Assembly (NCBI RefSeq): GCF_963921235.1
Contig: NC_086097.1
Coordinates: forward strand, 137,208,001 to 137,272,000
Length of the DNA stretch: 64,000 nucleotides
Reading direction: 5' to 3'
DNA from: Mobula hypostoma
Taxonomy: Eukaryota
The position numbers and the translations under genes are program-made. Below the pieces are notes generated by a model. It saw only the letters and a list, made by a program, of their open reading frames with translations. It was not told where the DNA came from and made no database searches. Below, piece by piece: positions 30,043 to 46,021 of the stretch. Position 1 is the stretch's first letter, and each line of letters begins with the position of its first letter.

Positions 30043-30159
30043 ATGGAGCTGAAGAAACCAATTTTAGCCGCAATCATAATCCTTCTAAGCAGTGTTGTTG
30101 CTATCATGGTTATCGCCATCATGCACTTGAAGAATCACACTATCGCTGCTGGGCTAAAG
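30043..30159 (+). CDS. ENTPD3: NTPDase coding exon 1: start codon and N-terminal TM helix
   Basis: Acceptor ...ttgtacag at 30030; in-frame upstream TGA at 30037 fixes ATG 30043; MELKKPILAAIIILLSSVVAIMVIAIMHLKNHTIAAGLK; donor GTAGGT at 30160. Confidence 0.85.
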
Positions 30160-33100
30160 GTAGGTCGCTCTTTGCAGCTGGGCAGGAAATGCAAGCACGC
30201 GCTCGTGAATGAGTTGGGACTCAGAGTGGATATAGAATTGTCCAGTGAGGAAATGGGCCCTTCAGCCCAGGAAACCAGTCCTGGTGTGTGACACCATGGA
30301 AACAGGCCCTTTGGGCCCAACACATTCATGCCAGCTGTGTTGTCCAGAGAGCTGGTTCCATCTGCTCATGGTTGGTCCATAGCCCTGTAAACCTCTACTT
30401 GTCCAGATGCCTCCTAAGCATTGCCAATGTGCCTGTCTCGACTACAATTTATTAGAGCTCATCCCAGATACGTGCCCACCCTCTGCGTGAAGAAGCTGCC
30501 CCAATATGCTTCTTAAATCTCTCATCTCTGATCTTGAACCAGTGCTGTCTTTTTTTTAGAACCTCCTGCCTGGGAAAGAAAGGTTGAGGTGCTTTTACAC
30601 TGTAAATGCCACCATCTTCTTAGGTACTGTACCTCTAGCAGGCCAAACCTCCATTTCCTGCATTCCTGGGAACTAATCCTACCCTGACGTTATTTTATTC
30701 TCCTCACATCCCTCTTCAAACTCCTCCGATTCCATCACTAACTCTTACACAACTGGTCAGCTTGCAGTGACCGATTAACAGACCAATCTGTACACCTTTG
30801 GGGTGTGGGAGGGAATCAAAGCAACCGTGTGGTTACCGAGGGCCGAGAGGAGTCAGGTCTAGAAGCCAAACGTACGCAGGTTGTGGAGGCAATTCCAATC
30901 TCAGTAGAGGAAAGGAAGTGGGAGAAGTGCATAAAGGGGGATAAACATTGGAGGGTGACTAGGGAGGGGAACCAGATGGTCTGCGTGGCCAGCAAGGACA
31001 TGAACGCTATAACCATATTGTGACTGTTGACAGAGGAAATGTAATGGGAAATATTACTACCACACATTAAACATTGACGTAGACTGTATCTTACTGTAGT
31101 CTAACTGTATCTTCTTGTACTCCATTTGTATCCAACTACCAACACAATAACAACATCTAAATGTACCCTAAGTGTACCTAAAGTTCTGCCCTATACAATC
31201 ACGGCCTAATTGAATCTATATTATAACTGCATCTAACTACGATCCAACTAATCGTATCACCTGTCGTTAATTGTACTTTATCACAGTTTTAACTATCCCT
31301 TACTATGTCCTAACCGTGCATCTTTTCAAGTACGGAATTGTCTTCGACGCAGGAGCCTCGAGTACAACTGTTTATGTTTATAACTGGCCGGCGGAAAAGG
31401 AGAATAACACGGGTGTCGTCAGTGAAAAGTACAAATGTAAAATTGAAGGTGCGGAACGCAAGTACATTTCAAACGTACCTCTCATTGGTTAAAAGAGGCA
31501 ATTAATTCACAAAATTTAAAGACTTGTTGGGGAGAACGTGATAACAGAAAAGGAAAACTAGCATTAGATGCTGATCAGCTTTAGCGTTGCTCATTCACTG
31601 TGGCAATGGGGGCTTTTCATAAAGGCTACACCGACAGGAGGGGAAACTGTTTCTCTTGGACAGTGCCCTTGACTGAGTTAGAAGGTCATGGACTTGGGCC
31701 TGTGTAAAAAAAATTCTGGGTTTACACATTCAATGAGGGAGTTCTTAAGGGTTAGGGGTACCATCTTTCAAAAGGGAAATGGTATTGCAGTTACAAGTTC
31801 CTATTGGTCAAGCACAAAGAGATCCTATAGCAACTTTGATGAAGTGCCAGGGTACTCTCTATGGTATCCCAAACAGCATCACTTAAACCGATCCTGTCAT
31901 TTTTGTACAATTATTTATGGAGCTGGCCGTGCCTAAGGTGTGACATACAGGACTTCATTATCAGTAACAACACACAAGATGCTGAAGGAGTTCAGTGGAT
32001 AGTCGACATTTCAGGCCGGGATTCTTCAGCTGCTTTGATAACCAGTATAACAGGGTGAAGGGAAGGAGTAGAGAAAGAGCTAACGAGATATCAGTGGACC
32101 TAGTTGAGAAGGGGGGAATGAAAGTAATGGGAGACACTGGAAAATGATAGGTGGATGTGACAAACGGCTGAAAATTATGCTTTGGGAACGCCTGAGGACT
32201 TTAGGATTCTTTAAAGTATATGTCTTCCCATTATCAGGATCGGCCATTTCTGATTTTGACCATAACCCAGCGGAGGCAGCTTCTTCATTGGAACAGTGTC
32301 TCAATAAAACAATAGAAGAGATCCCGGCAGAGAAACACAACGCTACGCCACTCTATTTTGGAGCTAGTGCAGGAATGCGACTACTCCGGTAAGATAATAA
32401 GAACATTTACTTAAACAATATCACACTGCAAAGTGAAAAGACTAAGTCATTCAAAAAACCCTGAGATTATAATAGAACACAGAATACTACAGCACAAGAA
32501 CAGGTCCTTCCATCCACTTAGCAGTGCCAAACTAATTAAACAAGGATTAAATATCTGACTAAATTAATCTCCCCTGCCTACCTAATGCCTATGTTCCTCC
32601 ATTCTCTGCACACTAAGATGTGACATCCCTCCATTCTCTGTGAAACACCACTTCTCCTGTACCTCCAGCCAGAATAAGTCCAATCAACCACTACCATCTG
32701 TCTTCTACGATGCAGCCAATTCTGAATCCAAAAGGCCAAGTCACTAGGAATTCTATGTATCTCAGTCTTCTGGATGAGCCTACCATGAGGGACTTTGTAG
32801 ACTACATCCACACCTCTATCTTCATCAGTCACCTTCGTCATCTCCTCAAAAAACTCAGTCAAGTTACCAGGACATGAATTGGCCCACACAAAGCCATACT
32901 GCCTATCCCTGTTTAGACTATGGTTTTCCAAATGTTCATAAATCCTACCCTCTAAAAATCCTCTCATACAGATTCCCTATCACTGATGTGAGGCTCACCA
33001 GTCTATAGTTTCCAGGATTATTCCTATTTCCCTTCTGGAATATCAAAACAACATTAGCTACTTCAAAGTTGCTGGTGAACGCAGCAGGCCAGGCAGCATC

Positions 33101-45100: not shown

Positions 45101-46021
45101 AAGATTTCTGCTCTCTTTCAAGTCTCTCTTATGGATCATACTGAAGCCCATAATCTCCAGTTGCCCGTAAACCTTTGCTTCCTTAGACTAAGTTATCTGT
45201 CCTAACATCTCAAATGACTTGGGGCCAAATTTAATTTGTAACAGTTCTCTGAAACATCATGGAAGAAAATGCCCTTAATGCCCATACTATTACAAGTTGC
45301 TCCATCGGGCAGAAGACACAACTTGAAAACACCTACCACCAAACTCAGATAGTACATGCTGTTATGACTCTTATCGCCCCTTAGTACAATAAGATAGACG
45401 CTTGACCTCACAATCCACCTTGAAGCTTACTGTCTACAATAGGTTCTGTAACTCTCGACACTGTTGTGCAGTTGTTTTTCTTGTGTAAACAAATACACAT
45501 GGATGACATGCATAACAGTTTTTCACTGTACTTCATACGTAATAAAGCAATTCATCCGAAGCTAGAGCAGGTGCATGTGGAACCGGTGAATGAAATGACA
45601 TTATAAATCATGAATAATCTTAAGAATAGTTTATTGAGGATGGTGTGTATTATAAAGAAGTTGGAAGCCACCAGGTAATATCACATATAGCTGCTCTGTG
45701 ACGATTCAATCTAGAGATAAAAGTGACACTATGAATATCAATGTAGTCTTCTGAAACCTTGGGGCGCTACAGAAATGAAACTTGTATTCTTATCACCCAC
45801 TGATACACTTTCCTATGTTGCAGGTGGAAAACAACAGCATAGGCTGGTCACTTGGTTATATGTTGAACCTTACCAACATGATCCCTGCAGAAAATCAAGT
45901 GAGCCGAACACCAATGAGTGAAAGTGCATTCAGCGGACTCTTGCTTCTGTTTATAGTTCTGGCCCTATTCTGTTCCTTTTTCATTTGTATTTCAGTCATA
46001 CGATCAATTCCATTCATATGA
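30043..46021 (+). CDS. ENTPD3: Divergent ENTPD3-like ecto-nucleoside triphosphate diphosphohydrolase (GDA1/CD39 family), 9 coding exons: 30043-30159, 31331-31448, 32238-32388, 34754-34913, 36875-37102, 38499-38774, 38855-38965, 39334-39471, 45824-46021; 1497 nt, 498 aa
   Basis: Exons join in frame with AG acceptors and GT donors (one GC donor). All five apyrase conserved regions and both N- and C-terminal TM helices are present. ENTPD3-like segments include YNPDNNITLIGTGDP, AFSGFYDTMEALNLTGSF and GWSLGYMLNLTNMIPAE. Adjacent to RPL14, as ENTPD3 is in human. Ortholog versus paralog status is unresolved. Confidence 0.9.
31331..31448 (+). CDS. ENTPD3: NTPDase coding exon 2 (ACR1)
   Basis: ttttcaag|YGIVFDAGASSTTVYVYNWPAEKENNTGVVSEKYKCKIE(G)|gtgcgg, 118 nt. 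Confidence 0.93.
32238..32388 (+). CDS. ENTPD3: NTPDase coding exon 3 (ACR2)
   Basis: ttatcag|SAISDFDHNPAEAASSLEQCLNKTIEEIPAEKHNATPLYFGASAGMRLL(R)|gtaaga, 151 nt. Confidence 0.93.
33064..34039 (-). mobile_element. Penelope-like element: GIY-YIG endonuclease fragment, pLTR and inverted tail
   Basis: PPGTYPCKRKECYTC...FTCESAGVIHCVRCSRCGLLYI / RLGDRFAEHL...VATHFN...LRLEEQHLIFHLGSLQPDGMN; 14-bp TSD AACATTAGCTACTT. Confidence 0.88.
33115..33152 (-). ncRNA. Minimal type I hammerhead ribozyme motif in PLE
   Basis: tagtc-CTGACGA-agggtctcggcct-GAAA-c-GTC-gactg. Confidence 0.7.
34754..34913 (+). CDS. ENTPD3: NTPDase coding exon 4 (ACR3, catalytic Glu)
   Basis: ctgtcag|[53 protein letters not shown]|gtttgt, 160 nt. 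Confidence 0.93.
35003..35863. mobile_element. Penelope-like insertion with inverted pLTR pair
   Basis: 35003-~35550 is minus and ~35550-35863 is plus, forming long inverted arms; 13-bp TSD GAGAAGCAGAGTC. Confidence 0.85.
35731..35768 (+). ncRNA. Minimal type I hammerhead ribozyme motif, intact core
   Basis: cagtc-CTGATGA-agggttccagccc-GAAA-c-GTC-gactg. Confidence 0.72.
36875..37102 (+). CDS. ENTPD3: NTPDase coding exon 5 (ACR4)
   Basis: ttggcag|RRIWKQLNRPLTIKTKGTLDLGGASTEIAFVP...ESLGCYGRDEAENIYWANLIQ|gtaaaa, 228 nt. Confidence 0.92.
38499..38774 (+). CDS. ENTPD3: NTPDase coding exon 6
   Basis: aactcag|KSANKSSVEDPCLPSHYT...SSC...YNPDNNITLIGTGDPIQCCRQLLSIFNFK...QGKFV|gtaggt, 276 nt. Confidence 0.88.
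38855..38965 (+). CDS. ENTPD3: NTPDase coding exon 7 (missed by ORF track)
   Basis: 80-nt intron, then tatctag|AFSGFYDTMEALNLTGSFPIDVFHSTVQSFCRKNWNQ|gtaagt, 111 nt. Confidence 0.92.
39334..39471 (+). CDS. ENTPD3: NTPDase coding exon 8 (missed by ORF track), GC donor
   Basis: cttgcag|VQQLLPNVPDLYRKAFCFNAYYIFVLLMEGYKFNEQTWTNINFQKQ|gcaagt, 138 nt. Confidence 0.9.
40438..41901 (-). mobile_element. hAT-Charlie/Buster DNA transposon, internally deleted and degraded transposase
   Basis: TIRs CAGTGGTTCCC / GGGAACCACTG; 8-bp TSD GTCTAGAG; minus-strand remnant FPYLVDHGFSEVTQLLSNQRNVLQVTEHGDLR...DVEKLISLHQAH. Confidence 0.9.
41915..42830 (-). mobile_element. Older degraded Penelope-like element
   Basis: Collinear with 33064-34039 (purine-rich pLTR, degenerate hammerhead, GIY-YIG remnant). 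Confidence 0.6.
43010..44224. mobile_element. Tc1-like transposon remnant with fold-back rearrangement
   Basis: Plus arm encodes LQQDNEPKHTSK...WPSQSPDLNIIENLW (DD34E region) and ends ...CACTG|TA; 43010-43465 is an inverted copy of the same region. Confidence 0.85.
45824..46021 (+). CDS. ENTPD3: NTPDase last coding exon (ACR5 and C-terminal TM helix)
   Basis: gttgcag|VENNSIGWSLGYMLNLTNMIPAENQVSRTPMSESAFSGLLLLFIVLALFCSFFICISVIRSIPFI-TGA. Confidence 0.93.
   Translation: MENNSIGWSLGYMLNLTNMIPAENQVSRTPMSESAFSGLLLLFIVLALFCSFFICISVIRSIPFI

Follow-up and report, generated by a model that had tools for sequence, protein, structure and literature searches.

The ecto-nucleotidase gene ENTPD3 of the ray Mobula hypostoma carries active-site changes that exceed chance expectation, and these changes are clade-wide in sharks and rays and were acquired stepwise in nested clades. 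The gene lies at 30043-46021 on the forward strand of the 64,000-nucleotide stretch analysed here (contig NC_086097.1, positions 137,208,001 to 137,272,000; hereafter the window). Altered specificity is the likeliest reading of the pattern, ahead of a non-catalytic role; hydrolysis of pyrophosphate (PPi) or polyphosphate (polyP) is a minority possibility. The gene itself is not new, RefSeq already carrying an annotated M. hypostoma ENTPD3.

The gene comprises nine coding exons, and all eight introns (8/8) are bounded by GT..AG. Its open reading frame (ORF) of 498 aa is free of stops from the ATG at 30043 to the TGA at 46021, and the product is identical at 498/498 residues to RefSeq XP_062912488.1 and at 490/498 to M. 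birostris ENTPD3. The intact ENTPD3-like ORF of the preliminary description is therefore upheld, and the motif changes it listed, in apyrase conserved regions (ACRs) 1, 2 and 4 and in the segments reading YIESL and FYD, are all located where it placed them. The features are given below; codon assignments were verified for D45, A48, S50, S122, E165, D202, E209, E238, D357 and W441.

30043..30159, forward strand: coding exon 1, with the ATG and the N-terminal transmembrane (TM) helix (about aa 5-29); gene model and hydropathy.
31331..31448, forward strand: exon 2, with ACR1 and C75; D45 at 31346, A48 for Ser (GCC, 31355), S50 for Arg67 (AGT, 31361).
32238..32388, forward strand: exon 3, with ACR2 and C99; S122 (AGT, 32366) replaces Thr, A123 and R126 are kept.
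34754..34913, forward strand: exon 4, with ACR3, catalytic E165 (GAA, 34860-34862) and N174; gene model and alignment.
36875..37102, forward strand: exon 5, with ACR4; D202 (36932) and S207 kept, E209 for Gln226, E238 (GAA, 37040) for His, and C242.
37061-37066, forward strand: ribose contacts R245/D246, kept, in exon 5.
36953..36955, forward strand: codon of the ACR4 Glu, E209 (GAA); alignment.
38499..38774, forward strand: exon 6, with C270, C289 and C315; lost Cys pair, S328 (38706) and W334 (38724).
38716..38718, forward strand: internal in-frame splice acceptor in exon 6 (AG 38716-38717); one low-depth contig of a close relative.
38855..38965, forward strand: exon 7, with the base-stacking position D357 (GAT, 38873-38875) for Tyr375, and C381.
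39334..39471, forward strand: exon 8, with Y399 (equivalent to Tyr417, kept), F403 for Tyr421, C404 and N406.
45824..46021, forward strand: exon 9, with ACR5 W441 (45845), the C-terminal TM helix (about 45920-46006) and TGA.
48359..51816, reverse strand: RPL14-like gene, convergent with ENTPD3; weak KOW match.

The protein belongs to the GDA1/CD39 family and, by descent, to the ENTPD3 orthogroup. Residues 38-460 match Pfam PF01150 (GDA1_CD39) at 317 bits against a gathering score of 24.9, the five ACRs are present, and D45, E165, D202, S207 and W441 are all in place. The hydropathy profile peaks over aa 3-31 and 463-498, marking two terminal TM helices, which also appear in the AlphaFold model (pLDDT 83.4), and the model superimposes on rat NTPDase1 (3zx0_A) with a Z-score of 49.2 and a root-mean-square deviation of 1.6 over 376 residues. 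The named full-length homologs among the matches listed are ENTPD3, and identity to the four bony-vertebrate ENTPD3 proteins compared is 42-50%. A maximum likelihood tree was constructed from the ectodomains of 20 elasmobranch, one holocephalan, 23 bony-vertebrate and five outgroup NTPDases. The five outgroup proteins separate with a support of 100, the elasmobranch ENTPD3 clade has a support of 100 and a stem length of 0.35, and Callorhinchus ENTPD3 groups with the elasmobranchs with a support of 78. Measured from the Callorhinchus node, the summed path is ~0.82 for Mobula, ~0.56 for marmoset and ~0.92 for carp, so that the overall evolutionary rate of Mobula ENTPD3 is unexceptional. No second ENTPD3 copy was found elsewhere within the 64-kb window, nor a second elasmobranch ENTPD3 among the best 120 matches listed in two protein searches.

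The residue census covered 20 elasmobranch species, with one protein each, and 116 bony-vertebrate ENTPD3 clusters (for ACR1 and ACR2 the elasmobranch number is 19, since the Cetorhinus sequence lacks the N-terminus). At ACR4 position 209 the elasmobranchs have Glu in 20/20 species, whereas the bony clusters have Gln in 116/116. Ten conserved ectodomain Cys residues pair as five disulfides in cell-surface NTPDases; the window protein keeps eight of the ten, and S328 and W334 stand in place of mouse C347/C353. This pair is gone in all 20 elasmobranchs, whereas in bony ENTPD3 Cys is found at 328 in 113/113 aligned clusters and at 334 in 107/113. In the model the loop that held the pair is a predicted β-hairpin with an invariant Trp instead. 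W334, N406 and L240 are likewise fixed in 20/20 elasmobranchs. The S48A change is present in 17/19, the exceptions being Heptranchias and Pristiophorus, and Ser is found in 116/116 bony clusters. S50 (R50S) and E238 (H238E) occur in 8/8 batoids, T122S is limited to Mobula (two species), Hypanus and Hemitrygon (Thr in 116/116 bony clusters), and A241G is likewise found only in the four myliobatiforms. The base-stacking position 357 is Asp in 5, Glu in 2, Tyr in 11, His in 1 and Ser in 1 of the elasmobranchs, and Tyr in 112 and Trp in 4 of the bony clusters. All ten galeomorph sharks have Tyr357, and 8/10 combine it with Phe399, beside the same Glu. Individual steps can be told apart along the species series: in Heptranchias the Glu is accompanied by an unchanged ACR1, galeomorphs have S48A in addition and keep the stacking Tyr, and rays have further lost Arg67 and mostly the stacking Tyr. 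The preliminary description had proposed a coordinated remodelling; a single event special to this gene is not supported, since shark and ray orthologs normally carry the same residues, which is the first part of the refuting condition that the description itself had set, and since the residues arose stepwise. Absent from the description were the Cys-pair loss at 328/334, F403 in place of the in-plane Tyr, and the kept R245/D246 and Y399.

Callorhinchus ENTPD3 isoform X3 keeps S48, R50, the short Cys pair, Y357, Y399 and S406, and the corresponding changes therefore postdate the holocephalan split. The Gln-to-Glu change may date to either the elasmobranch or the chondrichthyan stem, because isoform X3 is without the ACR4 exon. 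In a wider census of 200 domains from 150 diverse GDA1/CD39 representatives, the ACR4 position is Gln in 134/138, Glu in 3 and His in 1; S48 is found in 138/139 and T122 in 142/142, and position 357 carries His or a non-aromatic residue in 26/135. Independent ACR4 Gln-to-Glu changes are seen in an axolotl ENTPD8-like protein, which also lacks R245/D246 and Y357, in a Hydractinia NTPDase and in a Logan protein. Whether the Glu co-varies with an Ala at 166, a pair noted for Ppx, was considered (Ala in 4/20 elasmobranchs, 1/3 of the other Glu domains and 6/127 Gln domains) and dropped, the counts being too few to use. Summed over 12 cleft positions of our own choice, the charge runs from −1 to −4 in batoids, from 0 to +2 in sharks and from 0 to +3 in bony vertebrates.

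Constraint was measured as Fitch parsimony steps on FastTree trees over aa 38-456, the elasmobranch tree having 20 species and a length of 2.71. The elasmobranch mean is 2.13 steps/site, with 37% of sites invariant. The ten core sites, which are catalytic or lie at the metal (45, 47, 126, 165, 174, 202, 204, 205, 207 and 441), and the eight retained Cys show 0 steps in elasmobranchs, as do ribose contacts R245/D246, which show 7 and 8 steps in bony vertebrates. Invariant sites in elasmobranchs make up 89/139 of those that are slow in bony vertebrates but 25/176 of those that are fast (Spearman 0.56). That the gene is not decaying, as the preliminary description suggested, is borne out by the core invariance in 20 species, the bony-like site constraint and the unexceptional branch length. 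E209, N406, Q182 and W334 are newly invariant in elasmobranchs and represent fresh constraint rather than loss. Phosphate-loop sites evolve at 0.53 of the mean rate in elasmobranchs versus 0.06 in bony vertebrates. The base-contact sites 357/399/403 accumulated 17 steps against 2.8 expected from random trios drawn from 174 sites of similar bony constraint (P=3e-5, a value that is optimistic, the trio having come from the literature but having been picked after the alignment was viewed). The ACR3-ACR4 loop (aa 180-192, at the exon 4/5 junction) is slow in bony vertebrates and relaxed in elasmobranchs, with 6 steps each at sites 181, 189 and 192.

In NTPDases the ACR4 Gln positions water. The NTPDase3 mutants Q226A and R67G reportedly remain active with an NDP (nucleoside diphosphate) bias, and Q226A is said to alter the cation requirement. 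The CD39 mutant S57A reportedly has increased ADPase activity, and a substitution of CD39 His59, whose position is S50 in the window protein, is said in a title to turn CD39 into an ADPase. In mouse NTPDase3 numbering the window protein carries S65A, R67S, T139S, Q226E, H257E, Y375D and Y421F, and keeps D62, R143, E182, N191, D219, S224, Y417 and W459. By alignment D357 corresponds to mouse NTPDase3 Y375 and to rat NTPDase2 Y350, so that the numbering given in the preliminary description was right. In NTPDase3 the base is described as stacked by Tyr375/Tyr417, a role that falls to Tyr350/Arg394 in NTPDase2; Arg245/Asp246 are given as binding the ribose, the two DXG aspartates as contacting the metal, and Arg67 as contacting substrate through its backbone (PMC12489842, in which the human complexes are models). 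Elsewhere Tyr398, adjoining a Cys, is described as binding the base in plane (PMC4379058), NTPDase1 Ser57/Thr131 as phosphate contacts (PMC5803232) and Phe365/Tyr408/His59 as lying near the base (PMC10238538).

The gene, its orthology, the residue states and their phylogenetic pattern are observed; that shark and ray ENTPD3 is active, and which way each kinetic parameter has moved, we infer. Judged from sequence, there is about an even chance that the protein is an active but retuned, base-indifferent ecto-nucleotidase with an altered ratio of nucleoside triphosphate (NTP) to NDP hydrolysis, cation preference or turnover. The DXG aspartates, the phosphate loops and the ribose contacts would still hold the metal-nucleotide, and the terminal phosphoanhydride would still be cleaved with E165 as base. 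No later than the elasmobranch stem, the ACR4 Gln-to-Glu change would have added a carboxylate beside the metal/water network and a Trp hairpin would have replaced the disulfide loop. In batoids the loss of Arg67, the loss in most of the base-stacking Tyr and the acidification of the cleft would have come next. The predicted outcome is little base selectivity, a higher Km or lower turnover, a shifted cation/pH preference and probably an NDP:NTP ratio above that of mammalian NTPDase3. Points that weigh against this reading are that Gln-to-Glu differs from Gln-to-Ala, the change in the NTPDase3 mutant; that the kinetic direction leans on reported mutant effects, one of them known by title; and that the base trio was chosen after the fact, as noted above.

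The likeliest alternative is a weak or dead enzyme, retained in the membrane as a scaffold or to bind metal or nucleotide, in which the added carboxylate would repel the phosphate product or misplace the attacking water. The near-universal Gln of the wider family (134/138) is consistent with this, as are the still eroding phosphate-loop and base sites of batoids, their cleft of −1 to −4 and the annotation of isoforms without ACR4 in Hypanus and Callorhinchus; moreover, a Q193E NTPDase was, by its title, crystallized with Mg-AMPPNP, so binding survives. However, E165, D45, D202, S207, R126, N174 and W441 are invariant over 20 species; at least some of these residues should have disappeared from an enzyme long dead, and their invariance would favour catalysis. 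Elasmobranchs, besides, conserve the ribose contacts better than bony vertebrates do (0 versus 7 and 8 steps). On balance we consider this alternative unlikely.

A substrate switch would go further, the enzyme acting on PPi, triphosphate (PPPi) or short polyP in the fashion of Ppx, or on a substrate with a cationic base, of the thiamine di- or triphosphate type. Polyphosphate is reportedly present in elasmobranch tesserae, to judge from a title, and the base pocket is relaxed. E209 is in register with E150 of E. coli Ppx, E. coli GppA bears the same DxGGASTE motif as the window protein, Ppx/GppA have the nearest fold after the NTPDases, and 4BRH is, by its title, the structure of an NTPDase with thiamine phosphovanadate. 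E150 is described as conserved through the Ppx family and required for activity (PMC5417653). Yet the Ppx sequence match spans 12 columns at a probability of 1.8% and speaks to register only, and the Gln-to-Glu change takes a single base change. The ribose contacts are invariant in 20/20 elasmobranchs, galeomorphs keep Tyr357 (10/10), with Phe399 in eight of them, beside the same Glu, and the acidified batoid cleft disfavours polyanions. Neither PF02541 nor PF21447 matches the window protein at E up to 1, whereas E. coli GppA matches both, and Ppx domain III was not found in the window protein. We regard a switch of this kind as improbable. Its boldest form, shark and ray ENTPD3 as a cell-surface phosphoanhydrase for substrates that lack a nucleoside or carry a cationic base (PPi, short polyP, thiamine phosphates), appears somewhat less probable still; the changed chemistry would then possibly be tied to the mineralization of tessellated cartilage.

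About as improbable as the substrate switch is an ordinary ecto-apyrase, in which the changes would be conservative or compensated and would adapt the enzyme to elasmobranch body fluid. Among sharks and rays these residues are the usual state, 26/135 family domains have His or a non-aromatic residue at position 357, and no ENTPD3 backup is evident in the window or among the best 120 matches listed. T122S and Y403F are conservative, and Arg67 touches substrate by way of its own backbone (PMC12489842). Against these points, S48, T122 and Q209 are each found in 116/116 bony clusters and are near-invariant family-wide, Asp or Glu is unable to stack the base, and the base-site drift is well beyond expectation.

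Elasmobranchs are near iso-osmotic, and Conger and Aldrovandia are marine. An osmotic explanation is weak, because ENTPD3 of these two marine fishes shows canonical motifs; zebrafish Entpd3 is described as limiting hypotonic wound signalling (PMC4274268). A pseudogene or assembly error is ruled out by the RefSeq identity, the orthologs and the constraint pattern, and a tandem paralog or neofunctionalized duplicate was rejected on the single copy in the window and the lack of a second elasmobranch ENTPD3 among the best 120 matches listed.

No RNA run was listed as holding the window's own sequence, and runs X4 and X5 did not cover its exons; neither result speaks for or against expression. Splicing of the gene in a close relative follows from a run X2 contig in which exon 5 runs straight into exon 6 sequence that lies 1.6 kb away, with GT..AG borders (a single 486-nt contig at depth 2.8, with 4 differences in 229 nt). 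The junction links exon 5 (37102) to the internal AG of exon 6 (38718), in frame, and skips 73 codons that include C270, C289, C315 and C316; in run X1 a synonymous change at 38717 abolishes this internal acceptor. Two Logan proteins are identical at 479/485 and 480/485 residues to Leucoraja ENTPD3, and the contigs that carry their 485-aa ORFs are 1851 and 1947 nt long, lengths that suggest spliced mRNA in skate. Annotated ENTPD3 isoforms without ACR4 are Hypanus X2 and Callorhinchus X3.

The neighboring convergent gene at 48359-51816, for which Pfam gave a weak KOW match below the cut-off, is RPL14-like and may be RPL14, the neighbor of ENTPD3 in human. Just past exon 4, at 34996-35831, two retroelement-like copies lie head to head and form an inverted repeat of ~260 nt with 92-93% complementarity. 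Intron 8 holds a DDE transposase fragment (Pfam DDE_3, 43015-43994) inside nested inverted arms of 47-176 nt. A long interspersed nuclear element (LINE)-like reverse transcriptase frame of 528 aa, stop-free, occupies 54501-56087 on the forward strand, with smaller reverse transcriptase fragments at 7391-8356 and 52554-53003. Rfam gave 0 matches within the window.

Sharks and rays thus offer, across the clade, a natural experiment on the ACR4 position, which hardly varies in NTPDases and is Glu in Ppx/GppA. A few expression constructs could probe the NTP:NDP ratio, cation use and base selectivity in NTPDases; should the kinetics be ordinary, the finding shrinks to lineage divergence. Caution is called for where ENTPD3 of sharks and rays is automatically annotated as an ordinary apyrase. 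Among the titles and abstract starts of Creative Commons PMC and bioRxiv papers, no kinetic or active-site study of elasmobranch ENTPD3 was found.

Compared with known systems, the window protein has the two TM helices, the five ACRs and the D62/E182/D219/S224/W459 equivalents of vertebrate NTPDase3, but differs where that enzyme has Gln226, Ser65, Arg67, Thr139, His257, Tyr375, Tyr421 and C347/C353. With the elasmobranch ENTPD3 orthologs it has the ACR4 Glu, the lost Cys pair, W334 and N406 in common, and position 357 varies by lineage. Its fold is that of the rat NTPDase1 (3ZX0/3ZX3) and NTPDase2 (3CJ1/4BQZ) structures, and it has the R245/D246 ribose pair of rat NTPDase2; unlike it, these rat enzymes have the ACR4 Gln, the ACR1 His, an aromatic Y350/F365 and the short Cys pair. 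Since it lacks the full ten Cys, the ACR4 Gln and the ACR1 His/Arg, we do not file it as a canonical cell-surface NTPDase1/2/3/8. PDB 4BRD is, by its title, an engineered Legionella NTPDase1 Q193E with Mg-AMPPNP, and probably carries the same ACR4 substitution. The residue itself is not visible in the alignment, and the equivalence is probable because of the score shifts: 4BRD gives 56.2 bits versus 54.9 for wild type against the window protein, and 105.7 versus 106.8 bits against a Gln-dominated profile. Legionella NTPDase1 is soluble, bacterial and ~20% identical to the window protein. Ppx/GppA, of the ASKHA fold, give Z-scores of 15-20 (up to 20.4) to the model; unlike them, the window protein is membrane-anchored, keeps the NTPDase ribose contacts and, in rays, has an acidic cleft, and it is not filed as a Ppx/GppA phosphatase.

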